Assembly: GCA_964547085.1 (NCBI GenBank)
Contig: CAZJMO010000002.1
Location: 345-33,823, forward strand
Direction of reading: 5' to 3'
DNA from: an uncultured Fibrobacteraceae bacterium
Lineage (GTDB): Bacteria; Krumholzibacteriota; Krumholzibacteriia; LZORAL124-64-63
DNA: 33,479 nucleotides
Shown here piece after piece: positions 4,962 to 29,661 of the stretch. Below the pieces are notes generated by a model, which saw nothing but the letters and a program-made list of their open reading frames with translations, was not told the origin of the DNA and ran no database searches. A program made the position numbers and the translations under genes. How positions within the stretch are numbered: the stretch's first letter is position 1; each line of letters begins with the position of its first letter.

Positions 4962-6101
4962 ATGAACTCGGACGAGGTCGTTGTTGCGAGACGCCGCGCG
5001 TTGCTCGCGTGGTACGACGCGTTCGGCCGTGATCTCCCCTGGCGCCGCGTACGGTCGCTCTACGGCACCTGGATCTCCGAGATCATGTTGCAGCAGACGA
5101 CGGTGCAGGCCGTGATTCCGCGCTGGACGGAGTTCCTCGAGCGGTTCCCGGACGTCGGGGCCCTGGCCGCCGCGGACGAACCCGACGTGCTCGCGGCGTG
5201 GTCGGGTCTGGGCTACTACCGTCGCGCCCGCTTGCTGCATCAGGCGGCGCGCCGCATTGTCAACGACCTCGGGGGAGAGTGTCCGCACAGTCCGGCCGGC
5301 TGGCGCGACCTGCCCGGTGTCGGCGAGTATGCTGCCGGGGCCATCGCCAGCATCGGTCTGGGAGTGGCGGTGCCGGCGATCGATGCGAACGTCCGGCGCG
5401 TCCTGACGCGCTGGGCCTGCGGCACGACGGACGCTGCACGGCGGTTCGGGGCCGCTGCGCTCCGGGATCTGGCGACCCGTCACGTGACCGTCGACCGGCC
5501 GGGCGACTGGAATCAGGCGCTCATGGATCTCGGGGCCGGACCATGCCGTGCCGGGCAGGCCGATTGTTCCGCATGTCCGCTGAAGACCTGGTGCGCCTGC
5601 GGGCTGGCCGACGCGAGTGCGGTCGTTCCGGCGCCGAAGGCGCGTCCGCGGGTGATCCCGGTCCTGCTGTCGAGTCTGGTACTGCACCGGGCCGGGCGCG
5701 TTCTGTTGTTGCCCAGCGAGGCGGCCGTGGTCGTTCCGGTGCGTGGTTTCGGCGTTCCGGTCCGGCGTGGCCTCGACGGCCTGTTCAGCGGGATGGTGAA
5801 TGTTCCCTCGACGCCCTGGTACGGTGATCCGGGCGATTCCGCGGAGGACCCGTTTCCTGCGGTCTGGCGACGTTGGTTGCGTCAGATCGGATGGCGTCGG
5901 CCGACCGTCCGCGCGCTGGGCTCGTATCGTCACGCCATCACGGTCCATCGCCTGCGTGTGGCTGTCTTTATGGCCGAATGGCCTGCCGGGTCCGAACCGG
6001 AGACCGGACTGAACGCCGTCTGGATGAGACCGGATGGGCGCGCGGCGGCGTCTACGATGGCCAAACGATGCCTTGATCTCGCAATTGCAAATGGCCTTTG
6101 A
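4962..6101 (+). CDS. mutY: A/G-specific adenine DNA glycosylase
   Basis: LLAWYDAFGRDLPWRR...YGTWISEIMLQQTTVQAVIPRWTEFLERFP...GLGYYRRAR is the HhH-GPD region. An Fe-S Cys cluster (C..C..C..C near CRAGQADCSACPLKTWC) is present. A TTG at 4956 is an alternative start. Confidence 0.8.
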   Translation: MNSDEVVVARRRALLAWYDAFGRDLPWRRVRSLYGTWISEIMLQQTTVQAVIPRWTEFLERFPDVGALAAADEPDVLAAWSGLGYYRRARLLHQAARRIVNDLGGECPHSPAGWRDLPGVGEYAAGAIASIGLGVAVPAIDANVRRVLTRWACGTTDAARRFGAAALRDLATRHVTVDRPGDWNQALMDLGAGPCRAGQADCSACPLKTWCACGLADASAVVPAPKARPRVIPVLLSSLVLHRAGRVLLLPSEAAVVVPVRGFGVPVRRGLDGLFSGMVNVPSTPWYGDPGDSAEDPFPAVWRRWLRQIGWRRPTVRALGSYRHAITVHRLRVAVFMAEWPAGSEPETGLNAVWMRPDGRAAASTMAKRCLDLAIANGL

Positions 6102-7836: not shown

Positions 7837-9204
7837 TTGCAAACCGTGCTGGTGGTGGACGACGAGATCGCGATCCGCGAAACGCTCGCCCAGATTCTCG
7901 GTTACGAGGATTATCGTGTGCTGACGGCGGCGTCGGGTCCGGAAGCCCTCGACCTGCTCGAAGAGCAGTCGGCCGACCTCGTTCTGCTGGATGTCAAGAT
8001 GCCCGGTATGGACGGCTTCGAGGTCCTGTCACGACTTCAGGAGCGACTTCCGGACCTGCCGGCCATCGTCATCTCCGGCCACGGCGACATCCAAACCGCC
8101 GTGCAGGCGGTCAAGCAGGGGGCGTACGACTTTCTCGAGAAGCCACTCGATCGGTCCCGTCTGCTGGTCACGATCCAGAATTGCCTGCGCCATCGCAGTA
8201 CCCTCGCCGACCGCGAGCGTCTGGCCGCGAAAGCCGGCAGGAGTACGCCCCTCATCGGTGGCTGTCCGGCGATGTGCGACGTGCGTGCTTTCATCGAGAA
8301 GGTGGCGCCTACCGAGTCGACGGTGCTGGTGACGGGGGAGAACGGGACCGGCAAGGAACTGGTGGTCGGTGCGCTCCACGCCGGCAGTCTGCGCCGGGAC
8401 GGACCGCTGGTCGAGGTCAACTGCGCCGCCATTCCCGGCGAACTGGTGGAGAGCGAACTGTTCGGTCACGAGAAGGGGGCGTTCACGGGTGCCGAACGGC
8501 TGCGGATCGGTAAGTTCGAACAGGCCAACGGCGGGACCCTCTTTCTCGACGAGATCGGCGACATGGGCGAGCAGGCCCAAGCCAAGGTGCTGCGCGCGGT
8601 CGAGGAGGGAACGATCCAGCGTGTCGGCGGCAGCGAGACGATGACCGTCGATGTCCGGATCGTGGCCGCCACCAATCACGATCTTTCCGACCCCGCCTCG
8701 GGCTTCCGCCGCGACCTGTTTTTCCGGCTCAATGTGCTGTCCATCCACATGCCGCCGCTCCGCGATCGTCCGGGAGATGTCGAATTGTTGCTCGATTTCC
8801 TCATGGACCAGCTTGCCGGCGCCATGAAGACCGAGCCGAAGACCTTTGCGCCGGAGACGCTGGGCCTGTTGAGGGAATACTCCTGGCCGGGCAATGTCCG
8901 CGAACTCCGCAACCTGGTCGAGCGTCTGTTGATCCTCGCGCCGGGGCCGATTGTCCGCCCGATCGACCTGCCGGTTCTTCCCGGAGCCGCGTCGGCGGCG
9001 CCCGAGGTTCCCGATCTTTTCCGCTGTGCCGATTTCCAGGAATTCAAATCCCGCGCGGAAGCCTTGTTCCTGCAACAAAAACTCCGGGAGCACCGTTACA
9101 ATGTGAGTCGAACGGCTGAGATCCTGGGTATGCAGCGCAGCAACCTCTACAAGAAGATCACCAAGTATGGGCTCCGGACCCAAGTCGAGGACGAACCGTC
9201 ATGA
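7837..9204 (+). CDS. Sigma-54-dependent response regulator (NtrC/AtoC family: receiver + AAA+ + Fis-type HTH)
   Basis: The TTG start is preceded by GAGGAGG. The receiver has LVLLDVKMPGMDG. The protein has Walker A GENGTGKE, a canonical GAFTGA loop (GHEKGAFTGAE), and the C-terminal HTH NVSRTAEILGMQRSNLYKKI. Confidence 0.9.
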   Translation: MQTVLVVDDEIAIRETLAQILGYEDYRVLTAASGPEALDLLEEQSADLVLLDVKMPGMDGFEVLSRLQERLPDLPAIVISGHGDIQTAVQAVKQGAYDFLEKPLDRSRLLVTIQNCLRHRSTLADRERLAAKAGRSTPLIGGCPAMCDVRAFIEKVAPTESTVLVTGENGTGKELVVGALHAGSLRRDGPLVEVNCAAIPGELVESELFGHEKGAFTGAERLRIGKFEQANGGTLFLDEIGDMGEQAQAKVLRAVEEGTIQRVGGSETMTVDVRIVAATNHDLSDPASGFRRDLFFRLNVLSIHMPPLRDRPGDVELLLDFLMDQLAGAMKTEPKTFAPETLGLLREYSWPGNVRELRNLVERLLILAPGPIVRPIDLPVLPGAASAAPEVPDLFRCADFQEFKSRAEALFLQQKLREHRYNVSRTAEILGMQRSNLYKKITKYGLRTQVEDEPS

Positions 9205-9356: not shown

Positions 9357-9611
9357 ATGAAGCGTTTTCTCGCCGTCCTCGCGCTGGCGAGCGTTCTAAT
9401 GCTTTTGCCGCTCGCGGCGATGGCCATGGACCCAACGGCGGACGCAGAGTTCGTCGACCATTCGGAAACTGAGGGAATCGCTCTTGATGGCGGCGGCCTT
9501 TTGATAGGCAAGATACCATGGGTGACCCGGACGAACTTGGCGGTGGTTTCCGCAACCAGGTTCTTCCTCCGACGGCCACCGGCGTGGTGCCATACGGCCC
9601 CATGCCAGTGA
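9357..9611 (+). CDS. Small hypothetical secreted protein (84 aa)
   Basis: A strong RBS GAGGAGGAAGG precedes the ATG at 9357. The signal peptide is MKRFLAVLALASVLMLLPLAAMA. I recognise no family, and the weaker GC3 bias leaves coding status uncertain. Confidence 0.4.
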   Translation: MKRFLAVLALASVLMLLPLAAMAMDPTADAEFVDHSETEGIALDGGGLLIGKIPWVTRTNLAVVSATRFFLRRPPAWCHTAPCQ

Positions 9612-9677: not shown

Positions 9678-9727
9678 AGCGACGTGTTTGATCTGCGATC
9701 CACCAACTCGCCAGGGGATGCAGATGA

Positions 9728-12700
9728 ATGGCTGATTTCGAAGGGTTTGACAGGGCGCCCCGTGGCCCCGACAGCATCCAGGGTTCCGACCTGGTCCAGG
9801 AGCTTGAGCGCCTGGAAGCGGTCGGCGATCTTCATTTCCATGCTGCGGCCTACACGACTGCCCTGGACTACTACGATCGCATCTTACCGGAGGAAGCACT
9901 GGCCCTCCTGGCGCCGGCGCATGCGTTGCAGGTGTTGCGCCACGCGCTGACCGCGTGTCTGCATCTCGGTTGGGCCGACCGTGCCGACCAGATGTTCGGT
10001 CGTGCCCGGACCTTCCTGGAGCACGCCGGCGATCTGGATTCCGAGGTCCGCGACTGCGAGCGTGCGCGATTCCAGGTTCGCCTCGCTGCTCTGCGCATGT
10101 TGCGCGGCGACTACCTGGCGGCCCTCGAGACGGCCAAACGGGCCTTCACTTTCCTGGCGCTGACCGACCAGCATGTCGAGGTCGCCAACCTCCAGCTCAC
10201 CATGGGAGCCTGCCACCAGCGTCTGGGACGCCTGGACAAGGCCGAGGAATTCTATCTGGACAGCCTCAGCACCTACCGCCGGGTCGAGGACGAGGCCGGC
10301 GTCGCGACGCTCTACAACGCGCTCGCCATGCTGCACAAGGCAGGCTGCCGCTGGGACAAGGCGCTGTCGCTGCTCGACAAGGCGATCGACCTCGCCGAGC
10401 GGAACGGCGCGCCGCAGCTCCTGTCCTGGTTCCATCTGAACCAGGGCATCATCATGACCAAGGTCAGCCGGTTCGCCGAGGCCCGCCTCGCGCTGGAACG
10501 GAGCCTGCGCCTCTGCAAGAGTCTCGGCGACCGTATTCGTGAACCGAAGGTTTTGCTCGCTCTGGGGCGCCTGGACATGCTGACCGGGCGGCTGGCCCGG
10601 GCCGAGGAGAACATCCTTGCCAGCCAGGTGCTGACCGCGCGGGAGCGCATGAAGCGTGAGGCCGTGATCGCCGACGAGTATCTCGGAGATGTGATGCTCG
10701 CGCGCGGTGACTGGGAAACGGCGCTGGCCAGCTACGAGATGGGACTGGAGCAGACGCGGTCGATCGGTCGGCCCAGCGATGTGGAGGGCGAGTTGCTGAG
10801 ACGTCGGGCGGAGGCCCGGCGAAGGGCCGGCGATCTTTCGGAGGCCGTGGCCGACGCGCACGCCGCCGTCGCGGTCTGCGAAACGTGCAGTGAGGACTAC
10901 GAACTGGGCTTCTGCCACCTGACGCTGGGCGAGGCCTACGCCGCCAGCGAGGACTGGTCACAGGCAGATCACCACTTCCGCGAGGCCGTGGACAAATTCC
11001 AGTCCCAGAACCTCCTTCGTGAGTGGTGCGACGCGGTCTGCACGTTCATGGAAGTGCGTCTGGCGTCGGCCGACAAGCCGATGCTCCTGCTGCTGCGGCG
11101 GCTTTTGCTCGACGTCCAGGACCATGCGGCGGCCAGCGTGAGCGACGAGTCTCTCGCATCTTGCCTGTCGGGGCTGGCCAGGGTGCAGCTTCGTCTCGGG
11201 CTTTGCGACGACGCGCTGCTGACCGTGTTCGAACTCGAACGCGTCGCCCGTGGACTCGAGGACGACGCGCGGTTGCGGGATGTGGCTGGATTACGCCATC
11301 TCGTCGACGCGGGGCTCGTTGGTAGCCTGGACCTGGCGGAATCGCCGGTCCGCGCCATCACCGGGATTCCCGGCCTTTTCCGCTCCAACGACGCCAGTCT
11401 GACCCGCCATCTGGACGCGGTGCTGATGGCGACCTGTGAGCGTGCCCACGCCAACTGCGGGTTCATCGCGCTCGGGGATCCGGCGACGGCCGATCCGGTG
11501 GACATCGCCGCGCGCCAGGACGTGAGCGAGAACCTCGCGGATCAGCTTGTGCAGTGGTATGCCGGCCGCGCCGAAGATCGCTTGGCGCCGCTGTTCTACA
11601 GCCGACTCGGCGAACAAGCCCCGCTTTTCGACCAGGTTCCGGCGCTTCGGGGTCGGGCTGATGGTTGTCTCTTCATGCCGCTGACTGTGCATTCGCGTCG
11701 ACTCGGCGTGTTGTTCCTCGGGATCTCCAGCGACGATTCCGCGGGATCCGTGGTCGACCAGTCCACACTGGACTTCCTGGCCAACTATCTGGGATTCCTG
11801 TCCTTGTTCCTGGCCGAGAAAGCACCGGGCGCGTCGCGGGCGCTGGATGTCATGCCGGACAATGAGGGCTTCGGCAACATCATCACCTGCAACGAGGGCA
11901 TGCTCGAGATGCTTGCGCTCGTACGCAAGGTCGCCAGTAGCGATCTGACCGTGCTGCTCCGCGGCGAAACAGGCACCGGCAAGGGCATGATCGCCTATGC
12001 CCTGCACCGCCTCAGCCCGCGTGCCGAAGGGCGTTTCCAGTCGATCAACTGCGCCGCGATCCCTGAAACACTGCTCGAGAGCGAACTCTTCGGTCACGTC
12101 AAGGGCTCTTTCACCGGCGCCGACAGCGACAAGAAGGGGCTGCTGCTCGAGGCCGAGGGCGGCACGGTCTTCCTCGACGAGATCGGGAAGATGCCGCTCG
12201 CGATGCAGGGCAAGCTCCTGCACTTCCTGGATACCCGTGTGGTGCGCCCGGTCGGCTCGGCGCAGGAACGTCATGTGGATGTGCGGATCGTCTGCGCCAG
12301 CAAGGCGGACCTGAACAGCCTCGTACAGGGCGACCGCTTCCTGGAGGATCTCTACTTCCGCCTCCTCGATTTCCCGCTCGTCGTGCCGCCTCTGCGGGAC
12401 CGCGCCGACGATATCCCGTTGCTGGCCCACCATTTCCTGCAGAAGTACGGTGACGAGTTGGGTGGCCACGTCCCCGAACTGGAGTCGGATGTGCTGGACG
12501 CGCTCGTCCAATACGATTGGCCGGGCAATATCCGGGAACTCGAAAAGTGCTTGAAACGGGGCCTCGTGCTCGCGCAAGGCGAGGACCGGCTGCGCCCCGA
12601 ACACCTACCGCGGGAACTGACCCCCTACTTGGCGGCCAGCGATCGCCGGGGTGTCACGCCGTTGCGCGAGACTCTGGCGGCCGTCGAGTCCCGCGAGATC

Positions 12701-12808
12701 ACGCAGGCGCTCAAGGTCTGCCGGGGCAACAAATCCGCCGCGGGCCGGATGCTGCAGATCAGTTATCCGAGTTTGCTCAAGAAGATCAAGCTCTACGGGC
12801 TGACCTGA
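9728..12808 (+). CDS. Large sigma-54 enhancer-binding protein: N-terminal TPR repeats + GAF-like domain + AAA+ + Fis-type HTH
   Basis: The first ~450 aa are TPR-like repeats (e.g. [32 protein letters not shown]). The GAF-like block is CGFIALGD...[19 protein letters not shown]. The AAA+ module has Walker A GETGTGKG and the loop variant GSFTGA ([11 protein letters not shown]). The C-terminal HTH is [20 protein letters not shown]. Confidence 0.85.
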
Positions 12809-12835
12809 TCGACGTAAGGAACGCGGATCGAGTAG

Positions 12836-12864
12836 GACCGGGCAATGATGTCCGGTCTTTTCTT
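12836..12864 (+). terminator. Intrinsic terminator of the TPR-GAF EBP gene
   Basis: The stem is GACCGG (12836-12841) / CCGGTC (12852-12857). It is followed directly by TTTTCTT. Confidence 0.55.
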
Positions 12865-13162
12865 GTCGTCCCGAAGGTTGCATGAGGTGTCGCGCTCTCT
12901 TGGAAGCCGAATTCGGTGGGCCAACAATGTTCCGGGCACGACTGAAGGTACGAACAATCAGGTGATATTGCGGCGATCGGCCAATGATCGTGGAAAATGT
13001 ATTTACACCGCAATCAATTGCAAAACAAGCTGTTAGGCGGGTTCCTGGAAAACTATAAAGATAGTTTACAGAACGTCGTTCCGCGTCGGTTTGAGGCCTG
13101 GCCGAGGATTTGTAACGCGTTGTGCACCAACGAGTTATTTTCACCTCGGGCTGCGCCGATAT

Positions 13163-13178
13163 CGGCACGGATGATGCA
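13163..13178 (+). promoter_or_regulatory. Candidate sigma-54 (-24/-12) promoter P1
   Basis: cGGCACGgatgaTGCA has GG at 13164-13165 and GC at 13176-13177, which is the canonical 12-nt offset. It fits the TGGCACG-N4-TTGCW consensus apart from two T positions. Confidence 0.45.
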
Positions 13179-13189
13179 GTATGAGCCCA

Positions 13190-13501
13190 TGAAGCGGTGA
13201 GTTGCAGGGAACGAACCCTTCATGTTTGAAATGGTCGTGGCTTGGGGGTACGGAACTGACCCTTGGGCTGACCGGCAAAAACCGAGGGAGTCTTCCACGG
13301 ATAGGCTCGTGGCGGTTCCGGTTAAAGAGGTGGGGTCTTTACCGGACACCGGATGCGAGAGAGGGAAGACGGCGGTTTCGGCCTCCAGTCGCGATCGAAA
13401 TCTCCTGAAGCACGTTTGGTGCGAGAGAGTCCCTCTGGTCTTGAATTGGCGAGATTCAAGCCCAGGATGCCAACTCGGTGGCGGGGCTCTCTCACTTTTT
13501 T
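13190..13501 (+). ncRNA. Candidate ~310-nt structured non-coding RNA (P1 to the T-run); family not recognised
   Basis: It lies in a lower-GC spacer with no convincing ORF or RBS. It is bounded by the P1 -24/-12 element and by a multi-helix 3' domain plus T6. Hairpins seen by eye include CCACG/CGTGG (about 13305-13322) and CTGGTCTTGAAT/ATTCAAGCCCAG (13435-13465). The 5' end is inferred only. Confidence 0.3.
13423..13501 (+). terminator. Compound helix plus T-run (putative 3' end or terminator)
   Basis: An 11-bp closing helix GAGAGAGTCCC (13423-13433) / GGGGCTCTCTC (13483-13493) contains one G-U. It encloses a 12-bp hairpin (one mismatch) and a 4-bp hairpin. AC and TTTTTT (13496-13501) follow. 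Confidence 0.4.
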
Positions 13502-13565
13502 ATGCCGTCGTAACAGACTCGGAGTATGTTTTCCCAGCCCGTTGACGAAGCGTCAGTCGTAGGTG

Positions 13566-13575
13566 ATTCCCGAAA
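13566..13575 (+). promoter_or_regulatory. Repeat motif copy 1: ATTCCCGAAA (candidate regulator site or UAS)
   Basis: The exact 9-mer TTCCCGAAA lies ~185 bp upstream of the P2 -24 element. Confidence 0.4.
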
Positions 13576-13635
13576 CACATTCTCCTAGGCACAACAGTCT
13601 CCAAACGGGGACGGTGTCCTCCTACTCACACAGGT

Positions 13636-13645
13636 ATTCCCGAAA
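13636..13645 (+). promoter_or_regulatory. Repeat motif copy 2: ATTCCCGAAA (candidate regulator site or UAS)
   Basis: The exact 9-mer TTCCCGAAA lies 70 bp downstream of copy 1 and ~115 bp upstream of P2. Both copies share the AGGT(G)ATTCCCGAAA context. Confidence 0.4.
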
Positions 13646-13751
13646 TCGACCCGTCATTATGCGGCGTTCCTGCCGTGTAGGACACGCCCGAGCGCTCGTT
13701 GATACAGCATGTTACGCCATTTTCTGGTTTCCCTGGTCGGCCCGTGTGTGT

Positions 13752-13767
13752 TGGCACGATGCGTGCG
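13752..13767 (+). promoter_or_regulatory. Candidate sigma-54 (-24/-12) promoter P2 for the lipoprotein operon
   Basis: TGGCACGatgcgTGCg has GG at 13753-13754 and GC at 13765-13766, a 12-nt offset. It lies ~45 nt upstream of the ATG at 13812. Confidence 0.55.
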
Positions 13768-13811
13768 ATGAACGGCATACGTAGGACGAACCCGGGTGGG
13801 AAGGAGCGACG

Positions 13812-14801
13812 ATGAAGGCGAAGACGCGACACGAAACGGTGACAGGGGTGGTGATCGGCTTGCTGACACTCCTTCTGCTGCTTCTGGCCACTGGATGCGA
13901 CGAGGAAGAAGATTGCGTCACGTGTGTCGAGGCTCCGCCGGTGGCTCCGACCCAGGTCTACTCCGTGAGTGGGGACGGTCGGATCACGGTTTTCTGGAAC
14001 GACTACCCCGAAATCTACGGCGACGATGTCCGTGGCTACCGGATCTGGAGCCGGTATTTCGTGGATGGCGACCAGAACGATCCCGCCCGGGAGTTCTACC
14101 TCATGGACGAGGTGGCCGTCGGCCAGAATTACGATGCCGACACGGGGCAGTACTACTACATCGACACCGATGTCGAGAACGCCGTGGACTATGAATATGC
14201 CGTCAGCGCGTTCTCCGATCATGGCGACAGCTATCTGAGCTTCGAGTTCGTGGTGGACACGCCGCTGCCCATGAGCGAGACCCCGCTCACACTTTTCGAT
14301 GTCGCTGGCCCTGCCGCCCAACTCTCCGGTTTCGATTTCAGCGTTGCCAGCGAGCACGGGGGCGGGAGCGGCAACGGATCCGAAGGCATCGTGGATCCGC
14401 GGGCCGTGGGCACCACGGCGGATATCCAGATCCGTTTCGACGAGAACGGCGTGCCGTGGCTCGAGACGCTCCGCGGCGAAGTCCACGTGCAGGACTCCGG
14501 GACCTTCCTCGACGCCGACGGCGGACTGTACTTCGAGGGCGTCTCGTGGGCGCCGGAGTTCGGCTGGTCGTCGAGCGGCGTCCTGGAAATGATCCGCGGA
14601 CACATCTACGTCGTCGAGATCTACGACGAACTCGTGGACGACGACATCCACTACGCCAAGTTGGGCGTCACGAACATCGACGCGTCCGCCGGTACGGTCA
14701 GGATCATGTGGGCGTATCAACTCGTCAACGGTCTGCCCGAACTGTCGCCTCCCGAGGCGCGCGGAGGCGACAACGACGATATCCAGGCCATCCGGCTCTA
14801 G
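13812..14801 (+). CDS. Hypothetical lipoprotein with FN3-like domain
   Basis: The RBS GGGAAGGAG lies upstream. The signal peptide has a lipobox-like LLLLATG|C. An FN3-like segment (VYSVSGDGRITVFWNDYP...GYRIWSRY...YYYIDTDVENAVDYEYAVSAF) is followed by an unassigned beta-rich domain. Confidence 0.7.
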   Translation: MKAKTRHETVTGVVIGLLTLLLLLLATGCDEEEDCVTCVEAPPVAPTQVYSVSGDGRITVFWNDYPEIYGDDVRGYRIWSRYFVDGDQNDPAREFYLMDEVAVGQNYDADTGQYYYIDTDVENAVDYEYAVSAFSDHGDSYLSFEFVVDTPLPMSETPLTLFDVAGPAAQLSGFDFSVASEHGGGSGNGSEGIVDPRAVGTTADIQIRFDENGVPWLETLRGEVHVQDSGTFLDADGGLYFEGVSWAPEFGWSSSGVLEMIRGHIYVVEIYDELVDDDIHYAKLGVTNIDASAGTVRIMWAYQLVNGLPELSPPEARGGDNDDIQAIRL

Positions 14802-14839
14802 CGGCGGCCTGAAGTTACCCGATCACGAGGAGGAAGGCC

Positions 14840-16531
14840 ATGGACACCATCAACAGGCGCACGAGGACCGCTCCGGTGTTTGCGTCCGTCCTGGCTGTGT
14901 GGGCCTTTCTGACCCTGGTTTCCGGTGCCATGGCTCAGGTGCCGGCGGAAACTCAGCCGAACGCAGTCGACCATTACCGGGATCAGAGCCTGCGCGTGAG
15001 CCTCTGGCTCAACAAGGACGCCGACCAGATCTTCAAGCGCGGCGAGCAGTTGCAGGTGACGTTCCAAACCAACGAGGACGCCTACGCCGTTCTCTACCGC
15101 ATCGACGTGGAGGGCCGGGTCGATATCCTCTGGCCGACGAGCCGATACAGCGACGGGTTCGTCTTCGGCGGGCACCAGTACCGCCTGCCGTCGACAGAAG
15201 GGCCGAAGCTCCGGATCGGCGACGGCGAGGGCATGGGTTACGTCCAGGCCGTTGTGTCGCGTTATCCCTTCGACCTGCGCGATCTCGAGGTCGACTTCCA
15301 TCACGAGAATGATCAGGGCGAGTTCGGGTTCTACGTCGCGGGGGATCCGTTCCTGGCGATGAACGAGGTCAACTACGCGGTGACCGGTCTCGAGGACGCC
15401 AGCGAGATGGTGGTGACCAACTACGTCAACTACTACGTGCATCGGAAGGTCGATCACCCGCGGTTCCTCTGTTACCAGTGCCACGACGACGCCGACGGTT
15501 ACCAGCCCTACAGCGACACCTGCACCGTGGAGATCCATTACGACCACGGCTGGCAGAACGACTGGTGGGTCAGCTACGGCTTCTACCCGGCCTACTACTA
15601 CCCGACGTACTACTACATCGATCCCTGGACGCGCGCGCGCTGGGTGAACTACTGGTACGACCCCTGGTACAGTTGGCCGTCCGTCTACTCGCACAGGTGG
15701 GATTACCAGTGCTACGACTGGCACCATTCGCCCCACTGGCGTCAAGACAGCTACACCGCCTACAAGCACGGGAATCGTCGTTACCGTCCGCTGGACAAGG
15801 ACTCGCTGATTCGTTCGCGGACCGTGCTCACGACGCGCTCCAAGAATGTCCTGGTCACCGGTAAGAGTCCCGGGGACGAGCGGATCCGCCGGATGAAGGA
15901 CCGCGAGGTGACCAGCCGGACCGACGACCGGACGCGGGACGGCAGCACCACCGCCCTGGACAGGACCAGGATTCCGGCCGGCGGCACCGCCCTGCGCAAC
16001 GTCTCGCCGGTGACGCGTTCGCAGACCCGCTTCGAGCAGAACAACCGGATCCGCACCTCGCCCGGTCTGCGCGTGCCGGGTTCGGGCGAGACCGACGGCG
16101 GGGTGTCTCGGACATCGCAGTCACGATTGCGGACCGGGACCGTTCGCAGCGGATCCTCCGGCACGACCACGCGGACCGAAAGCCGACGATCGGCGGACAG
16201 TCGCGAGACCATCAAGCCGGTGGAGTCCCGACGTGATCAAGGACGCGTCTGGACCAACCGGCGCAGTTCCAGTTCGGCGAACACGAGGCAGTCGACATCG
16301 CCGACGAGGACGGTAAAGCCGGTTTCCCGCAATTCGCGGTCGTCCGGCAGCAGTTCCGGAGAGTCGTCGGGAGGCACCTCGGTGCAGCGCCCGACCAAGA
16401 CGCCGCAACAGATCAAGCAGACGACGCCCGCTCGGTCGGGCAGCAGCACGAGCAGCAAGAGCGGTGAGAGCGGCAAGAGCAGCGGGACCTCGAGCAGTCG
16501 AGGCACCAAGAGCTCGGGAGGTCGTCGCTAG
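14840..16531 (+). CDS. Secreted DUF4384-domain protein with Trp/Tyr-rich block and long Arg/Ser/Thr-rich tail
   Basis: The RBS is GAGGAGGAAGG and the signal peptide is ...FLTLVSGAMAQ. The DUF4384-like core is LRVSLWLNKDADQIFKRGEQLQVTFQTNEDAYAVLYRIDVEGRVDILWP. The frame keeps high GC3 through the low-complexity tail. Confidence 0.7.
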   Translation: MDTINRRTRTAPVFASVLAVWAFLTLVSGAMAQVPAETQPNAVDHYRDQSLRVSLWLNKDADQIFKRGEQLQVTFQTNEDAYAVLYRIDVEGRVDILWPTSRYSDGFVFGGHQYRLPSTEGPKLRIGDGEGMGYVQAVVSRYPFDLRDLEVDFHHENDQGEFGFYVAGDPFLAMNEVNYAVTGLEDASEMVVTNYVNYYVHRKVDHPRFLCYQCHDDADGYQPYSDTCTVEIHYDHGWQNDWWVSYGFYPAYYYPTYYYIDPWTRARWVNYWYDPWYSWPSVYSHRWDYQCYDWHHSPHWRQDSYTAYKHGNRRYRPLDKDSLIRSRTVLTTRSKNVLVTGKSPGDERIRRMKDREVTSRTDDRTRDGSTTALDRTRIPAGGTALRNVSPVTRSQTRFEQNNRIRTSPGLRVPGSGETDGGVSRTSQSRLRTGTVRSGSSGTTTRTESRRSADSRETIKPVESRRDQGRVWTNRRSSSSANTRQSTSPTRTVKPVSRNSRSSGSSSGESSGGTSVQRPTKTPQQIKQTTPARSGSSTSSKSGESGKSSGTSSSRGTKSSGGRR

Positions 16532-16662
16532 GACATCGATGTGTGTTGGAGGCTTTTCCCCCCATCTTCCTGGTCGGAAGGGACGTTCCGGATCCTCGCG
16601 AAGGTTGGCACCAGAGGACGGGTGAAGGAAGGGAACAGAAGGCCGGGGGCCCTCAACACGAC

Positions 16663-16727
16663 GGAAGGGTCTCGGACAAATATTGTTGTCGATCAGGGGT
16701 GGCAATAACAGCGTCCGGGACCCTTCC
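16663..16727 (+). repeat. Long inverted repeat or stem-loop in the DUF4384 / M6-like intergenic region
   Basis: GGAAGGGTCTCGGAC (16663-16677) pairs with GTCCGGGACCCTTCC (16713-16727) at 15 positions, one being T/G. The ~35-nt loop contains a further 5-bp helix TATTG/CAATA. Confidence 0.6.
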
Positions 16728-16733
16728 CGAAAT
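16724..16733 (+). promoter_or_regulatory. Repeat motif copy 3: TTCCCGAAAT
   Basis: The exact 9-mer TTCCCGAAA overlaps the 3' arm of the inverted repeat. It lies ~26 bp upstream of the candidate -35 at 16759. Confidence 0.4.
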
Positions 16734-16758
16734 CACCGGCCGGCGACGGGGTCACAAA

Positions 16759-16787
16759 TTGACCCCGGACCTGGCCGCAGCTATGAT
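16759..16787 (+). promoter_or_regulatory. Candidate sigma-70-type promoter (TTGACC-17 nt-TATGAT) for the M6-like gene
   Basis: The -35 is at 16759-16764 and the -10 at 16782-16787, with a 17-nt spacer. It lies ~50 nt upstream of the ATG at 16836. Confidence 0.4.
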
Positions 16788-16835
16788 ACGCGGCGTTCGC
16801 GTCCACTCTCTCGTCCTATCCGGAAGGTCGCAAGA

Positions 16836-19800
16836 ATGAAGACATGGTCGGCGTGCCTCTGGACTTGCCTCTTGCTCGCCTGGACCTTGCCTGCCACGGC
16901 GATCGTTCCAGCCGCGGGATGGGATCCCTGGTCCCAGGCTCTCGACAAGGCTGCTGATCCGGTCGCCCTGTCCGACATCATGGCTCGGTTGCAGGTCCAG
17001 GCCCGACCCCTGCTGACGGACTGCTCGCGTGCGGTGCAACGGGCCCGCATCGACGGCCTGAAGGCGCCCGGATCCCTGGCGGCCGTCGCGATTCTGGTCG
17101 ATTTCGCCGACACATGCTTCTACGGCCGCGAGGACGAGTTCACGGGGCCGCTGCCCACGTCCGGCCAGAGCGACTTCTACTACGCGGCGCACGACGCCCT
17201 CTACTACGACCACCTCCTGCACGACGTCGGTGATTTCTTCGACGCCGCCAGCGCGGGGCGTTTCGACCTGGATTACGCCGTGCACCCGACGATCCTCGGA
17301 CTCGACGAGGGCATGGCGCATTACGGCAACCATCCCGAGAACGGTGAGCAGTCCGTGCTGCTGGCCGCCGACGCGATCGCCCGGCTGGACGCTGAGATCG
17401 ACTTCTCGCTCTATGACACCGTGCTGCTGATCCACGCCGGAGCCGGCGAGGAAACCGATGTCCTCGACGACTCGCCCGAGCAGATCTACAGCACGTACCT
17501 CGGGCCGGAGGACTTCGTCACCGCGATGGAGGATTCGATCCTCGACCAGCCGTACATCCCGACCGACGACTTCCCTGTCGGCGAGGGCGTACGGCACGTG
17601 CTGATCCTGCCGGAGATCCAGTTCCAGGACGCCTTCCCGGGCTTCAGCGGGAAATACGGTTCGCTCGGCACGTACTGCTTCGAGGTCGGGCTGCGGTTGG
17701 GGATGCTGTCGCTCACGGACTTCACGCCGTCCGGATCGCCGGACAGCCAGGGGATCGGACAGTTCGGGCTCATGGGCTACGGTCTGTTCACGGCCGGCGG
17801 ATTCATTCCGCCCCAGCCGTGCGCCTTCAACAAGCTGCTCATGGGGTGGCTCGACCCGCAGCCGGTGGACCCGGCGTCGGCAGCGACGTGGACACTGCAT
17901 CCGTCCGAGTTCCCCGACCACCCCGAGGCGGCCGCCCGCGTGGACCTCACCGGCTCCGAGTACTTCCTGCTCGAGTACCGGCTGCAGGATCCCGACGGCA
18001 ACGTCATCTTCAGCTTCGACGGCGATCTCAACGGGAACAATACGCCAGATTTCTACGACACCAGCAACGCCGAGAACGGCGGCCGACCGGCCGGTTTCTT
18101 CGACCCCGCCGAGGACATCCGCGAGTGGCTCACCGGAGCCGAGTGGGACTTCTTCGTCAGTGACAACGATGCGCGCGAGGACGGCGTCAAGGGGGCCGGC
18201 AGCGGGCTCTACGTCTGGCACATCGACGAGGGCGTGATCCGAGACGCCTTCGCCCAGGAACGCAACGTCTTCAACGCCGATCCGTCCCGGAAGTCGGTGG
18301 ACCTGGAGGAGGCCGACGGCATTCAGGATCTCGACACCCGCGAGCCGTCGCTGTTCTGGCTCGGTGGCGACGACGACAGTTTCCGCGCCGAGGACAACGC
18401 CGTCTTCGGACCGGACACGCGGCCGGACACACGCACCAACGGCGGCGTCCGCACCGGACTGGTGCTCGACGAGATCAGCGCCGTGGTGGTGGACTCGGTC
18501 CATGTCTTCGACGCCGGGACGCCGGACGAGCGCACCGGGATCCGCTACGCCGAGACCATGACGTTTCGTTGCCGCCGCGACACGGACCCGTTCGGCGTGG
18601 CCATCCGGACGGCGTCACGCGATCTGTCCGGCGTGGATCTGACCGGCAGCCATCTGTTGGCGGCCCCGCTGGCCGGCGGCGCCCAGAGCGAGCAGGTGAT
18701 CGTGGCCGCGGCCGATTCGGGGCGCGTCTACGCCCTCGATTTCGACCTGCTGGAGTGGGTCGACCACGACGGCGACCCCGCGACCGTGGAACCGTTGACC
18801 GTCGGCACCGATGACGCCGGCGCGCCTGTGACGTGGTTCCTGCCGGGCTGCGCAGGACCGGTGGGCACGGACGATGCGGGCCTCGAGATCGTGCTGAGCT
18901 CGCCGTCGGGCGTCTACGCCTTCGACCAGATCGGGGCGCCGCTCGCCGAGGGGCCGGGCGGCACGGCGCGCGGCCGCATCGCCGACGTGACGGCCGTATC
19001 GGCGCCGATTCTGTTGCCGTGGGGCAGCGGCGAGGCGGATCTGGATCCCGCGGTCATCTGCGTCGGCACAGTGAACACCGAAGTGGTCGGAGCCCCGACC
19101 ATGCTGCGATTCCTCGACGCGACCGGCGCCGAGGTCCATCCCGCCGTGAGCCTGGGTGGTGCGATCCAGGGCACGCCCGTCCGCCTGGACCGGATGCTCT
19201 ACGTGCCGGTCATCGCGCCGAACGCCACGGGTGCCCTGGCGGCCGTCACCTGTTTGCAGGTGGGCGACCCCGCGCTGGCATGGTCGGTGCCGCTCGATCT
19301 GTTGCCGGCCGACGTGCCGCCGCTGGTCACCGCGAACGCCGTGGTTGTCCGGGATGTCGACGGCAGGGCGCAGACCGTTTCGATCACGGGTGTGGATCCG
19401 GTCGTGGAACCGCTCTGGCCGGCGGACATCGTGGTCGGGACCGCCATGGGGCCGGGAGGGACATTCATCGGGAACGGCCGGTTCGGGCGCAGTGGCCCCG
19501 AGGCGGCCTGGCTGCTGGGCTGGCCGCGTCGCCCGTTGCCGGCGATCCAGGTCGGACAGGCGCAACCGCTCGCGCTGGGGTTGGATACGGCGCCGACTGG
19601 TTTCCTCTTCGCGAGCCGCGACGGTCGCCTGTTCCTGTGCGGGGCGGACGGTGCGGTGCGCCCCGGCTGGCCCATCGCCGGGCCCGCCGATGCGATGGCG
19701 ACTCCGGTGCTGGTCGAGCCGTGGGATTCGGTCGAGGGGCTGGCGACGCTCATGCTCGCGGCGGCCGGCACCACCCCGGTCGTCACCGGTGTCGACGCCG

Positions 19801-20231
19801 ATGCGGAGGCGTTGCAGACGCGCGCGGTGGCTCACCTCCAGGTGTTCCAGATCGGCGTTCCGTCGGAGTATTCGTTGGCCAGGGGCGCGTCCATGTACGG
19901 TGGCGGTCCTTGGCGGGGGGCGGTCGGCATATACGACGGGACCGCGCCGGCGGACGACGTGTCGCTGGAAGACACCCACGTCTGCTATCCTCAGCCGCTG
20001 ACCGACGCGGAACTGCACGTGCGCGGACGGGCGCCGGAGACGGGGGGCGCCAGAGTCGTGGTCGTCAATCTCCAGGGCGAGGTCGTGCGGGATTCCGGGA
20101 CGCTCGCTGTCGACGGCGGCGCGGTGTTCGAGTTCGTCATCGATATGCGGGATGTCGCGTCCGGTGTTTATCTCTGCAAGCTGCAGGCCGGAGGTCGGAC
20201 GAGCGTGCAGACGATCGCCGTGGCGCACTAG
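16836..20231 (+). CDS. M6 (immune inhibitor A)-like domain protein lacking HExxH, with repeat region and T9SS C-terminal sorting domain
   Basis: The start is set at the internal Met with signal peptide MKTWSACLWTCLLLAWTLPATA and RBS GGAAGG. M6-like blocks are VLLIHAGAGEE, GIGQFGLMGYG, AFNKLLMGWL, LYVWHIDEG and VDLEEADG. The zinc site reads FEVGL instead of HExxH. The C-terminus (CYPQPL...VVVVNLQGEVV...ASGVYLCKLQAGGRTSVQTIAV) resembles a T9SS type A / FlgD-Ig-like sorting domain. Confidence 0.8.
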   Translation: MKTWSACLWTCLLLAWTLPATAIVPAAGWDPWSQALDKAADPVALSDIMARLQVQARPLLTDCSRAVQRARIDGLKAPGSLAAVAILVDFADTCFYGREDEFTGPLPTSGQSDFYYAAHDALYYDHLLHDVGDFFDAASAGRFDLDYAVHPTILGLDEGMAHYGNHPENGEQSVLLAADAIARLDAEIDFSLYDTVLLIHAGAGEETDVLDDSPEQIYSTYLGPEDFVTAMEDSILDQPYIPTDDFPVGEGVRHVLILPEIQFQDAFPGFSGKYGSLGTYCFEVGLRLGMLSLTDFTPSGSPDSQGIGQFGLMGYGLFTAGGFIPPQPCAFNKLLMGWLDPQPVDPASAATWTLHPSEFPDHPEAAARVDLTGSEYFLLEYRLQDPDGNVIFSFDGDLNGNNTPDFYDTSNAENGGRPAGFFDPAEDIREWLTGAEWDFFVSDNDAREDGVKGAGSGLYVWHIDEGVIRDAFAQERNVFNADPSRKSVDLEEADGIQDLDTREPSLFWLGGDDDSFRAEDNAVFGPDTRPDTRTNGGVRTGLVLDEISAVVVDSVHVFDAGTPDERTGIRYAETMTFRCRRDTDPFGVAIRTASRDLSGVDLTGSHLLAAPLAGGAQSEQVIVAAADSGRVYALDFDLLEWVDHDGDPATVEPLTVGTDDAGAPVTWFLPGCAGPVGTDDAGLEIVLSSPSGVYAFDQIGAPLAEGPGGTARGRIADVTAVSAPILLPWGSGEADLDPAVICVGTVNTEVVGAPTMLRFLDATGAEVHPAVSLGGAIQGTPVRLDRMLYVPVIAPNATGALAAVTCLQVGDPALAWSVPLDLLPADVPPLVTANAVVVRDVDGRAQTVSITGVDPVVEPLWPADIVVGTAMGPGGTFIGNGRFGRSGPEAAWLLGWPRRPLPAIQVGQAQPLALGLDTAPTGFLFASRDGRLFLCGADGAVRPGWPIAGPADAMATPVLVEPWDSVEGLATLMLAAAGTTPVVTGVDADAEALQTRAVAHLQVFQIGVPSEYSLARGASMYGGGPWRGAVGIYDGTAPADDVSLEDTHVCYPQPLTDAELHVRGRAPETGGARVVVVNLQGEVVRDSGTLAVDGGAVFEFVIDMRDVASGVYLCKLQAGGRTSVQTIAVAH

Positions 20232-20348
20232 GGTCCGGAACCGGGAGCCGTGCCGCTTGCCGACACGGCGCTCAGGAGCTAGAGTCAGGGACCGATAAGG
20301 GACGTTGCCGGGGACAGTCCGCGGTGACCGTGAGAGGAAAGGCTACCC

Positions 20349-21287
20349 ATGCGGAACAAGACCATCATCACGGGCGTCGCGCTGCTCGGCCTGCTCGCCC
20401 TGATCCTGCCCACCGCCGCTGCTGCCGGCGGCAGTCCCGGCGACGCCGGGTTGCTCTTCCTCCGCCTCGGCATGGGCGCCCGGGAAGCCGCGATGGGCGG
20501 CACCGGAGTGGCGTCCGCCGAAGGCGCTGCGGCGGCGTACTGGAACCCGTCGCGCCTGGCCTTCACGCCTCCGGGCACCGAAGTCCTGGTCCAGCAGCAA
20601 TCGTGGCTCGGCACGTTCGACTACACCGCCGCTGCGCTGGCCCACCACGGGGATTTCGGCGTCATCGGCCTGACCGTCGCGGGTTTCTTCTCCGAGGAGA
20701 TCGAGCGTTACGGCAGCGATGCGGTCGGCGTCTCCGAGGGCACGTTCTCGCCGTACGACCTGGCGTTCGGCGTGAGCTACTCGCGTGCCTTCGGCGAGGA
20801 GTTCGCCATCGGTGCGCAGGCCAAGCTCGTCTACGAGAAGATCGACATCTACAGCGGTTCGGTGGCGTTGTTCGACATCTTCGCCTCCTGGCGCCTGAAG
20901 CACCTGCCGGGAATCAGCCTGGGCGTCAGCGCGACCAACTTCGGCGGCCAGATGACCGTCAACGAGGAACCGTTCGACGCGCCGCAGACCGTCACCGTAG
21001 GCGGTGCCTGGACCATGCAGAACGGTCCGCTGGCCGACCGCGTCACCCTGGCGGCGGATGTCGGGTTCTACAACGACGCGAACGAGAAGGCGCATCTCGG
21101 CGGCGAATTCAAACTGGTGCCGGAACTGGCGCTGCGGCTGGGCTACAAGGTGAACTACGAGAAACAGGGTTTGACCGCGGGCGCGGGTTTCCGGCACGAG
21201 AACTTCGGGATCGGTTATGCCTATGAGGACATCACTGACGACGCCTTCGATCCCGGGCATCGGTTCTCGCTGGAGTTCTTCTTCTAG
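20349..21287 (+). CDS. PorV/PorQ-family outer-membrane beta-barrel protein
   Basis: It has a signal peptide. The N-terminal motif LLFLRLGMGAREAAMGGTGVASAEGAAAAYWNPSRLA is typical of PorV/PorQ-like proteins. Amphipathic beta strands alternate, and the C-terminus is aromatic (...LEFFF). Confidence 0.7.
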   Translation: MRNKTIITGVALLGLLALILPTAAAAGGSPGDAGLLFLRLGMGAREAAMGGTGVASAEGAAAAYWNPSRLAFTPPGTEVLVQQQSWLGTFDYTAAALAHHGDFGVIGLTVAGFFSEEIERYGSDAVGVSEGTFSPYDLAFGVSYSRAFGEEFAIGAQAKLVYEKIDIYSGSVALFDIFASWRLKHLPGISLGVSATNFGGQMTVNEEPFDAPQTVTVGGAWTMQNGPLADRVTLAADVGFYNDANEKAHLGGEFKLVPELALRLGYKVNYEKQGLTAGAGFRHENFGIGYAYEDITDDAFDPGHRFSLEFFF

Positions 21288-22742: not shown

Positions 22743-22825
22743 GTTTTTGTCCCTGCCGAGGCGACCGTCCCTGCCGCCTCACCCCTGTCGGATTTGTCCC
22801 CCACATAATACCGGGATCGGTGTGT

Positions 22826-24274: not shown

Positions 24275-24326
24275 TGTCATCACCGTGACGGGCCGACCAG
24301 GCCCCACGTAGCCGGGAGAGAAACAC

Positions 24327-25193: not shown

Positions 25194-25205
25194 GCTTGCG
25201 CGGTG

Positions 25206-25240
25206 TCGGGCCGTGTCTCGATTGGTGCGAGACGGCCCGA
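25206..25240 (+). terminator. Stem-loop after the sigma-factor gene (possible terminator)
   Basis: TCGGGCCGT(GT)CTCG pairs with CGAGACGGCCCGA (13 bp with a 2-nt bulge) around a 7-nt loop. No T-run follows immediately. Confidence 0.35.
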
Positions 25241-25426
25241 TGGTGGCCTCCCTGGCGTATTTCTTGCTTATGACGTATCGTTCCCGTCTCGTTGCGGTGG
25301 TTTGCACGCCGCCACACGTGCGCAGTTGACACGGGGAATCCGAGCCGCCATGCTGGGATTGCCCGTATGGACAATGATGAGCGCCAGCATCGTGCGCCGC
25401 GTAACAGAGGTCACGGCAAGGTCGGC

Positions 25427-26326: not shown

Positions 26327-26412
26327 CGCGTTCGGCGAGGCTTGGCAGCCGCGGACGGCTGTGCTAGGCTCTGGCCGCGTCGGCGAAAGGATCCGCCGGC
26401 CTTGCGGGTAGG

Positions 26413-28679: not shown

Positions 28680-28718
28680 GGCCGGGCGTGCGGTGGGCCC
28701 GGCCGAGCATCCCTGTGT

Positions 28719-29561: not shown

Positions 29562-29661
29562 CCCATATTGGAACCCTCGGGACCGGCGGTGGCTGTAAAG
29601 GAACCGCTGTGCTACTGTTCGGCCCGTTGGATGGATTGCTGGATCGAGAGAGGACGGCCCG

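Follow-up and report, generated by a model that had tools for sequence, protein, structure and literature searches.

The window, i.e. the whole stretch of DNA analysed in this work, comprises 33,479 nucleotides (nt) of contig CAZJMO010000002.1 (assembly GCA_964547085.1) from an uncultured bacterium whose GTDB lineage is Krumholzibacteriota, and this report concerns a structured RNA gene of about 313 nt that it contains. The gene, at 13189..13501 from its predicted start site to the end of a T-run, is located in a 1-kb spacer (12809-13811) between an activator gene and a gene for a 329-aa protein. It is on the plus strand, as are the activator genes, the operon, the promoters P1 and P2 and the hairpins described below; no strand is assigned to the DNA motifs upstream of the promoters. 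Two sigma-54 activators are encoded upstream. The first (7837..9204) is of the response-regulator type, with receiver, AAA+ and HTH_8 domains (Pfam; NtrC-like in NCBIfam), and is syntenic in all loci with enough flanking sequence. The second, termed here the TPR/GAF activator (9728..12808, 1026 aa), carries TPR, GAF-like, sigma-54 AAA+ and HTH_8 domains according to Pfam, and is also syntenic; a terminator-like hairpin (12834-12859) with a T-rich tail is found at the end of its gene (12834..12869), where a preliminary description of this DNA had already placed a terminator (12836-12864). Downstream of the RNA gene there is an operon of four genes (13812..21287; Pfam, NCBIfam, synteny) that encode an FN3-like lipoprotein of 329 aa (13812-14801), a DUF4384 protein (14840-16531), an M6-like cargo protein of the type IX secretion system (T9SS) with a Por_Secre_tail domain (about 16730-20231), and a PorV/PorQ-family protein (20349-21287). 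The AlphaFold model of the 329-aa protein gave only generic matches to FN3 tandems, with no functional clue. The GC content is 0.48-0.58 in the spacer as compared to 0.62-0.69 in the flanking genes, a difference that had been apparent in the preliminary description.

The relatives used for comparison are 51 loci, one per species-level genome, retrieved via homologues of the 329-aa protein and designated here by the letter L and a number. The order response-regulator activator, TPR/GAF activator, RNA, 329-aa gene, DUF4384, M6-like, PorV/Q is kept throughout the loci examined, so the unit that had been proposed from the window, an RNA beside two genes for enhancer-binding proteins and upstream of a sigma-54 operon, is the same in every one of them. 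When the whole 1-kb spacer was compared with the relatives by blastn, only 13187-13507 aligned, which corresponds to the segment from the predicted start site to the T-run. In more distant loci the 3' domain of the RNA is still detectable by blastn, and nhmmer raises the detection of the RNA to about 40 loci. A covariance model of 306 positions and 99 base pairs, derived from eight close relatives, found 49 matches in 52 sources, with a single RNA per locus, always on the strand of the gene and upstream of it. The RNA is thus present upstream of the orthologous operon, on the plus strand, in 45 out of 45 loci with enough upstream DNA; where no match was obtained, the contig stops short of the site, apart from one doubtful match in Akkermansiaceae. 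We also scanned metagenome contigs with a pattern made of RNA motifs only, GAGGTGGGGTC-N{100,130}-GGCGAG, which returned mostly noise. Among the 80 loci listed and checked, one (L099) was true and had the same gene context and promoter, and the remaining 79 contigs could be used as a negative control of the covariance model. Given the conserved block, the covariance-model matches and the covariation described below, we consider that 13189-13501 almost certainly corresponds to a real structured RNA element on the plus strand.

The preliminary description had suggested folding the interval, and the segment 13188-13505 indeed folds at -144.1 kcal/mol (z = -5.3), with none of 100 shuffled sequences being as stable; the 3' domain alone folds at -40.7 kcal/mol (z = -4.55). 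The structure begins with a 5' hairpin (13188..13224) that has a conserved large loop, GUUGCAGGGAAC, with CAGGGA at 13205-13210. The central domain (13233..13396) consists of a long helix of 24 base pairs (13233-13258/13373-13396) leading into a junction, where a junction hairpin (13260-13288) stands beside an arm of stacked helices (13290-13298/13363-13370 followed by 13306-13320/13343-13359), at the tip of which an apical hairpin displays the invariant GAGGUGGGGUC as its loop (13327-13337). The 3' domain (13423..13493) is Y-shaped, with a closing helix (13423-13432/13484-13493), a hairpin (13435-13465) with the invariant loop GGCGAG (13448-13453), and a second internal hairpin (13468-13483). 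This is the three-way domain recognised earlier, but its closing helix, then given as 11 base pairs, is 10 base pairs long (the 11-nt arms show 91% complementarity). The window fold of 13188-13493, with the sequence CAUGAAGCGGUGAGUUGCAGGGAACGAACCCUUCAUGUUUGAAAUGGUCGUGGCUUGGGGGUACGGAACUGACCCUUGGGCUGACCGGCAAAAACCGAGGGAGUCUUCCACGGAUAGGCUCGUGGCGGUUCCGGUUAAAGAGGUGGGGUCUUUACCGGACACCGGAUGCGAGAGAGGGAAGACGGCGGUUUCGGCCUCCAGUCGCGAUCGAAAUCUCCUGAAGCACGUUUGGUGCGAGAGAGUCCCUCUGGUCUUGAAUUGGCGAGAUUCAAGCCCAGGAUGCCAACUCGGUGGCGGGGCUCUCUC, is in dot-bracket notation
(((((((.((...((........))...)))))))))........(((((((.(((((((((.((((((((.((((((.(((....)))......)))))).(((((((.(.......((((((.((((((((...(((((.......)))))..)))).))))..))))))...))))))))..))))))))))))))))))))))))..........................((((((((((..(((((((((((((.....)))))))))))))..(((((......)))))))))))))))
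The invariant or nearly invariant nucleotides cluster in the loops, namely CAGGGA in the 5' loop, GAGGUGGGGUC at the central apex and GGCGAG in the hairpin loop of the 3' domain. Most homologues outside the window's clade (e.g. L024, L016 and L030) have an extra linker hairpin, GGAUC-UGAUCACC-GGAUCC, between the central and 3' domains, and in these the last hairpin is GCC-GCAA-GGC with a GNRA tetraloop; the window's clade has neither.

The covariation in relatives, which had been named as a check, is strong. In the eight close relatives RNAalifold predicts 100 pairs, 41 of them with compensatory changes. In the alignment of 49 sequences standard pairs occupy 88.4% of the cells, as opposed to 40-52% when the 3' partners are slid by 1-3 columns; changes on both sides are seen in 91 out of 99 pairs (38-52 when slid), the covariation score is 0.448 (at most 0.106 when slid), and none of 500 shuffles reaches the observed values. 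Since this alignment was fitted to the model, the test was repeated on a plain MAFFT alignment of 32 sequences. Here RNAalifold again yields the 5' hairpin, the long helix, the inner arm and the 3' domain, and 38 of the 59 pairs are compensatory. An unsupervised ranking by mutual information with average product correction (APC) puts the predicted Watson-Crick pairs on top, and the same analysis of the alignment gives no signal of a pseudoknot or of long-range tertiary contacts beyond the nested helices. The alignment contains 405 G-U cells and 91 A-C cells; from this excess, the promoter and the T-run, the strand is established as plus.

The preliminary description had held that no plausible open reading frame (ORF) exists in the region. 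Mechanical ORFs do cross it, e.g. 13222-13545 (107 aa, ATG start), so the statement is not literally correct; in substance it stands, as a Pfam scan of the ORFs across the RNA region gave no match and no reading frame is conserved across the homologues, the low-GC relatives having 2-9 stops in all six frames. A conserved small ORF was ruled out on the basis of these stops in every frame of the low-GC homologues and of the missing Pfam match. This bears on the view that there is no RNA product at all, and that the conservation reflects either DNA regulatory sites, i.e. an extended enhancer region of the downstream promoter P2 (see below), or a small protein gene. Such a view could appeal to the mechanical ORFs and to the position of the region upstream of a sigma-54 promoter, a type that requires an enhancer. 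However, DNA sites cannot explain covariation with strand-specific G-U pairs, no frame is conserved, and a separate short motif at 13597-13619 already accounts for the P2 enhancer; we consider this view extremely improbable.

The RNA had not been matched to any family in the preliminary description, and a cmscan search of the whole window and of 11 homologous loci against Rfam 15 likewise gave no family at the gathering score. With the spacer scanned at E <= 10, the only hit was Ysr224 (E = 0.85, 17 bits, against a gathering score of 70 bits). ARAGORN found nothing. No covariance-model or ARAGORN match was obtained to the housekeeping RNAs (6S, RNase P, tmRNA, signal recognition particle RNA) or to the large ornate RNAs OLE, GOLLD, HEARO, ROOL and raiA, and the fold is unlike the 6S-type rod with a central bubble. 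Rfam gave no match to a known riboswitch aptamer class or leader in the window and the 11 homologous loci, and none in Rfam 15 to the families of the small RNAs (sRNAs) Qrr, GlmY, CrcZ/Y, Pxr and NrsZ. A hammerhead-like CUGAnGAG motif occurs in some homologues; it was rejected because it is not conserved and is not called by Rfam. Full-text searches found no literature on non-coding RNAs in Krumholzibacteriota.

Upstream of the RNA there is a predicted sigma-54 promoter, P1 (CGGCACGgatgaTGCA, 13163..13178), with GG at 13164-65, GC at 13176-77 and a predicted start near 13189. This is the -24/-12 element of the preliminary description. Its GG-N10-GC spacing is canonical and it agrees with the consensus TGGCAC-N5-TTGCW in 10 of 12 positions. 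The significance of P1 comes from conservation at a fixed distance and not from the quality of the match: YGGYAYG-N4-NTGCW is found 10-16 nt before the conserved 5' end of the RNA in 44 out of 45 homologous loci, the distance in the window being about 12 nt. The 45th locus, L048, has 11 nt between GG and GC (5262-5278, TGGTACGCCATCGTGCT), which reflects either an error in the assembly or a variant that is tolerated. Two further -24/-12-like matches, at 15051 and 20775 on the minus strand, are inside genes and probably due to chance.

P1 is preceded by elements of the kind expected of an activator-dependent promoter, for which an enhancer some 80-200 bp upstream is characteristic. Two enhancer-like palindromes with the motif TRTAAA-N5-TTTAYA are found at 12991..13007 (TGGAAAATGTATTTACA, distal) and at 13054..13070 (TATAAAGATAGTTTACA, proximal, about 95 bp upstream of the -24 element), i.e. 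at about -160 and about -95 relative to P1. Within the 33-kb window the motif is confined to this region. AT-rich TTTAYA elements are at the same place in other loci, and in nearly all loci a palindrome is located about 95 bp from the -24 element, and another site related to it is found some 63 bp upstream of the palindrome (the spacing in the window is N5, and a search pattern with N6 misses the window site). Between enhancer and promoter, an AT-rich stretch contains a CAA-N4-TTA element (13128..13137), found as CAAC-N3-TTAAA in most loci, which by its sequence would be a site for integration host factor (IHF). AAA+ enhancer-binding proteins are available, as the two activator genes are directly upstream of the P1 region. 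Taking the conserved promoter and these elements together, the RNA is very probably sigma-54-dependent.

At the other end, the closing helix of the 3' domain is followed by AC and then by a T6 run (13496..13501), which had been described as following the helix immediately and which we take as the putative termination signal. At least six T residues in an 8-nt window after the closing helix are present in 40 out of 45 loci. We consider it likely that the RNA is an independent, terminated transcript.

A second predicted sigma-54 promoter, P2 (TGGCACGatgcgTGCG, 13752..13767; predicted start near 13778), is located between the RNA and the 329-aa gene. It reads TGGCAYG-N4-NTGCS and is conserved in 47 out of 47 loci, 37-154 nt before the start codon. 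P2 has an upstream motif of its own (GTCTCCAAACGGGGACGGTGTCC, 13597..13619; family GTCyCy-N4-6-GGrrA-N2-4-TGTCC), which is present in all RNA-to-P2 spacers, sits about 150-250 bp upstream of P2 across the loci (about 150 bp in the window) and is unique in the window. The spacer between the RNA and the gene varies from 180 to 435 nt and is otherwise unconserved. As P2 with its different upstream motif is conserved in 47/47 loci, the operon does not need P1, and, as far as these motifs can tell, the RNA would be a transcription unit of its own and not a leader. The two different upstream motifs and the two activators encoded upstream suggest one activator per promoter, so the two promoters probably answer to different activators.

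The same evidence bears on the idea that the RNA acts in cis as a leader of the operon, in the manner of a riboswitch or under the control of a protein, with the 3' domain and the T-run as a conditional attenuator and read-through from P1 feeding the operon. The RNA is on the strand of the operon and directly upstream of it, the T-run is weak in some relatives, and ligand-binding RNAs typically have complex multi-junction folds such as this one, which in many homologues carries GNRA-type loops (GCC-GCAA-GGC). Set against this are the separate P2 promoter and its own motif between the RNA and the first gene in all 47 loci, the otherwise unconserved spacer, the lack of a riboswitch or leader match in Rfam, and the mutual-information analysis, in which no alternative pairing of the anti-terminator kind was found. 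We find this idea highly improbable.

Two minor features were noted in the P2 region. A perfect 10-nt direct repeat, ATTCCCGAAA, at 13566-13575 and 13636-13645 flanks the P2 upstream motif with a spacing of 70 bp. Many operon mRNAs seem to start with GGCGAACG at the predicted P2 start (L038:5926-5945, L009:5845-5860), a sequence that resembles the GGCGAG loop of the RNA and does not complement it.

A candidate target of the RNA was found in the leader of the TPR/GAF activator gene, where a hairpin (9691..9725) has a loop at 9705-9713 and a Shine-Dalgarno-like element, GGGGA (9714-9718), in the 3' strand of its stem. The loop contains CUCGCC (9707-9712), which immediately precedes the Shine-Dalgarno-like AGGGA and is found in 37 out of 37 leaders; the start codon is at 9728. 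RNAfold places CUCGCC in a hairpin loop of 7-9 nt in 35 out of 37 loci and pairs the Shine-Dalgarno sequence in the stem in 37 out of 37, and the outer stem shows compensatory changes between clades (GAUCUGC/GCAGAU vs ACCG/CGGU). Because the hairpin sequesters the Shine-Dalgarno sequence, translational control of the TPR/GAF activator is indicated, whichever the partner may be.

The GGCGAG loop of the RNA (13448-13453) is complementary to the CUCGCC of this leader, and both sequences are invariant and located in loops. When three conserved-loop probes were compared with six gene starts, the GGCGAG loop against the TPR/GAF activator start was the sole outlier (mean z = -1.24, 62% of loci below -1.5; -0.4 to +1.35 for the other combinations). 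Among 60 combinations of sRNA hexamers and gene leaders, a single one is universal (37/37), namely GGCGAG/CTCGCC at the TPR/GAF activator; the runner-up reaches 20%. CTCGCC is the only hexamer present in at least 90% of the TPR/GAF activator leaders. Given that 8 hexamers are universal in the sRNA and 11 in the leaders, chance alone would yield 0.021 complementary pairs. In the window's clade the complementarity is longer, at 8 bp. Kissing complexes are established for antisense RNAs such as RNAI/RNAII, and two loops with G+C-rich complementarity of 6-8 bp would fit the geometry of such a complex. A long-range duplexfold calculation of the whole RNA against the 5' untranslated region (UTR) of the operon gave a mean z of -0.04, no better than shuffles, and the reverse complements of the 5' loop and the apical loop showed no consistent site in the neighbouring genes. 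We suggest tentatively that the RNA pairs with the TPR/GAF activator leader, which is quite possible given the exact match of two invariant loops.

These features can be combined into a scheme that is our best explanation of the locus, and one that we hold with moderate confidence as a whole: the RNA would be an independent sigma-54-dependent transcript of about 310 nt that acts in trans on the activator leader. One of the two upstream-encoded activators would bind the TRTAAA-N5-TTTAYA palindromes (12991-13070), and bending of the DNA at CAA-N4-TTA would help this activator to switch on sigma-54 RNA polymerase at P1. Transcription would begin near 13189 and end at the T-run that follows the closing helix of the Y-shaped domain. 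The RNA would then act by a loop-loop contact of GGCGAG with the CUCGCC of the leader hairpin that sequesters the Shine-Dalgarno sequence. Production of the TPR/GAF activator would in this way depend on the RNA. Two circuits are conceivable, a feedback loop of the kind formed by Qrr and luxO, or a cascade that runs from the response regulator via the RNA and the TPR/GAF activator to the P2 operon.

There are several points that weigh against this scheme. The loci are known from the sequence of uncultured metagenome-assembled genomes (MAGs) alone. The P1 of the window begins with C and not T, and its 10/12 match is, taken alone, within chance, since the window contains 15 sites that differ from TGGCAC-N5-TTGCW in no more than 2 positions, compared to 10 +/- 3 expected. 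The T-run is weak in L003, L004 and L005, three of the closest relatives of the window, and a standard terminator scan makes no call at the end of the RNA because the terminator is branched and not a simple hairpin. In most clades the contact is only 6 bp and the flanking positions pair inconsistently; as both partners are invariant, covariation cannot support it, and an alternative role for GGCGAG would be in tertiary structure or in the binding of a protein. The conserved nucleotides are mostly in several separate loops and junctions and not in one long single-stranded seed, which fits the binding of a protein or a ligand as well as it fits pairing. Finally, no complementarity of the RNA to the operon 5' UTR or to other local genes was found.

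The distribution of the conserved nucleotides leads to another explanation of the same RNA gene, namely that it is mainly a protein-binding decoy or scaffold (as CsrB/RsmY/RsmZ, CrcZ or GlmY) and not a base-pairing RNA. Its conserved hairpin loops would titrate an RNA-binding regulator, possibly of the CsrA family, off ribosome-binding sites that contain GGA or AGGGA, e.g. that of the TPR/GAF activator leader. Besides the gathering of conserved nucleotides in loops and junctions, the 5' hairpin loop GUUACAGGGAUC displays A-GGGA-U, which resembles the CsrA consensus RUACARGGAUGU from in vitro selection (SELEX), a resemblance to be taken as a lead only. The Shine-Dalgarno region of the activator leader reads GAGGGAUG, a similar G-rich loop, CAGGGGUG, is displayed by a hairpin inside the operon (see below), and unpaired GGA motifs number 1-7 per RNA (mean 3.2). 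However, a single GGA site is kept in position, the one in the 5' loop (37/44), the two most invariant loops, GGUGGGG and GGCGAG, are without GGA, and the exact GGCGAG/CUCGCC complementarity is left unexplained. GlmY is a protein sponge among the sigma-54-dependent sRNAs, and CrcZ is another (PMC5113210). CsrA homologues do exist in Krumholzibacteriota but are predicted to be mostly non-canonical (PMC13443453). On balance we consider a decoy rather unlikely.

It has also to be asked whether this is a large RNA with a tertiary structure that, instead of being a conventional regulator, has a biochemical role of its own, e.g. as a ribozyme, as a ribonucleoprotein (RNP) scaffold or as a sensor acting in trans. 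Its size of about 310 nt, its roughly 100 base pairs, two multi-helix junctions and invariant loop sequences would suit such a role, as would the GNRA tetraloops in many members and the fact that the RNA is kept in every related species-level genome examined. On the other hand, neither a pseudoknot nor tertiary covariation over a long range emerged from the mutual-information analysis, the homologues differ freely in the length of the linker and of several helices, and tight linkage to activator genes and to a sigma-54 promoter is the signature of regulatory sRNAs; a non-regulatory role is therefore very improbable in our view. A more far-reaching and improbable idea is that the RNA is more than a pairing sRNA, namely a large tertiary-folded trans-acting sensor or RNP RNA that would form, as a kind of "trans riboswitch", the core of a cascade with two activators. 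The G-rich apical loop, the GNRA loops and the two junctions would bind a ligand or protein, and the GGCGAG loop would unlock translation of the master sigma-54 activator. If true, the cascade of this trans riboswitch would control a conserved cell-surface/T9SS-type module in Krumholzibacteriota.

It is useful to compare the preferred explanation, a sigma-54-dependent RNA that acts in trans on an activator leader, with the known systems. GlmY of Enterobacteria is a sigma-54-dependent sRNA of about 150-180 nt with overlapping sigma-70 and sigma-54 promoters, encoded beside the genes of its two-component activator GlrK/GlrR, and it acts by protein mimicry and titration. The present RNA gene is similarly next to activator genes, but the Rfam model of GlmY does not match it. 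In Vibrio, the Qrr sRNAs have a sigma-54 promoter and an adjacent gene for the AAA+ activator LuxO, and they pair with and repress the luxO mRNA in a feedback (PMC3262071). The proposed GGCGAG/CUCGCC contact with the activator leader would be the analogue of this pairing. There is no homology in sequence or structure, however: the Qrr RNAs are about 100 nt long, Hfq-dependent and use a linear seed, as opposed to about 310 nt, about 100 base pairs and a proposed loop-loop contact of 6-8 bp, and the present locus has two activators and two promoters with different upstream motifs. In Pseudomonas, crcZ is located directly downstream of cbrB, its promoter is induced by CbrB, and the RNA is about 400 nt long (PMC5113210). 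The present RNA is like CrcZ/CrcY with CbrB in size class and placement, even though CrcZ works via repeated A-rich Hfq/Crc motifs that are not repeated here, CrcZ has no comparable covarying multi-junction fold, and the Rfam CrcZ model does not match. The promoter of CrcZ is dependent on sigma-54 (RpoN). In Myxococcus, pxr is downstream of the sigma-54 response regulator gene nla19; it has an enhancer site besides its sigma-54 promoter, and its RNA folds into several stem-loops (PMC5568312). The position in a spacer downstream of an activator gene, the upstream sigma-54 promoter, the enhancer or enhancer-like site and the multi-stem-loop fold are all shared with the RNA described here, whereas Pxr is about 108 nt long with three stem-loops, comes from another phylum and shows no homology.

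Activator-linked sigma-54 sRNAs are recognised as non-coding genes with their own sigma-54 promoter and terminator beside an activator gene, and these are the features predicted here from the sequence. Judged by them, the RNA is a new family of putative regulatory sRNAs of this kind. It is larger and far more structured than the RNAs of the crcZ, pxr and Qrr systems, and shares with them the logic of placement but not sequences or folds. It would be the first defined regulatory RNA of the uncultured phylum Krumholzibacteriota, a member of the Fibrobacteres-Chlorobi-Bacteroidetes (FCB) group, with exact boundaries, a structure backed by covariation, a promoter layout and a candidate target that can be tested by mutation. 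The arrangement in which an sRNA gene adjoins a sigma-54 activator gene is known in Proteobacteria and in Myxococcota; it would thereby be extended to the FCB group and to an RNA of unusual size and complexity. The alignment and the model can be used as a new Rfam family, for the annotation of MAGs and for the mining of metatranscriptomes, and the circuit is compact (two activators, two sigma-54 promoters with different enhancers, one RNA and one leader hairpin), so that it could be rebuilt in a heterologous host.

A second conserved hairpin (16663..16727) is located inside the operon, between the genes for the DUF4384 protein and the M6-like T9SS cargo protein. The conserved stretch begins at about 16640, the apical GUCGAUCAGGGGUG is invariant in 42 loci, and a T-run often follows. 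Its closing helix shows compensatory changes (GGAAGGG/CCCUUCC vs GGAGAGC/GCUCUCC), which are seen in 8 out of 17 pairs. The element looks like an intra-operon attenuator or a protein-binding site, and it may be part of the same regulatory system as the RNA. Since the mechanical ORF start of the M6-like gene (16683) overlaps this hairpin, the true start of the gene is further downstream.

The complete module, including the RNA, was also found in L003, L006, L023, L033, L045 and L030, i.e. in five MAGs labelled "uncultured Fibrobacteraceae" and one labelled "Gemmatimonadales", and these six are probably mislabelled Krumholzibacteriota. Between the two activator genes of the window there is a small ORF of 84 aa (9357-9611, plus strand) that has a strong ribosome-binding site, GGAGGAAGG, and whose N-terminus resembles a signal peptide. 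Its conservation is weak and limited to the two closest relatives (tblastn E about 1e-4), and a GC-rich hairpin without a T-run follows it. Further downstream, the region 22820-32714 encodes an HtrA/DegP-type protease, an M23 peptidase, a YbbR-domain protein and the histidyl- and aspartyl-tRNA synthetases (HisRS, AspRS), and it includes a gene for a sigma-70-family sigma factor at 24327-25193.

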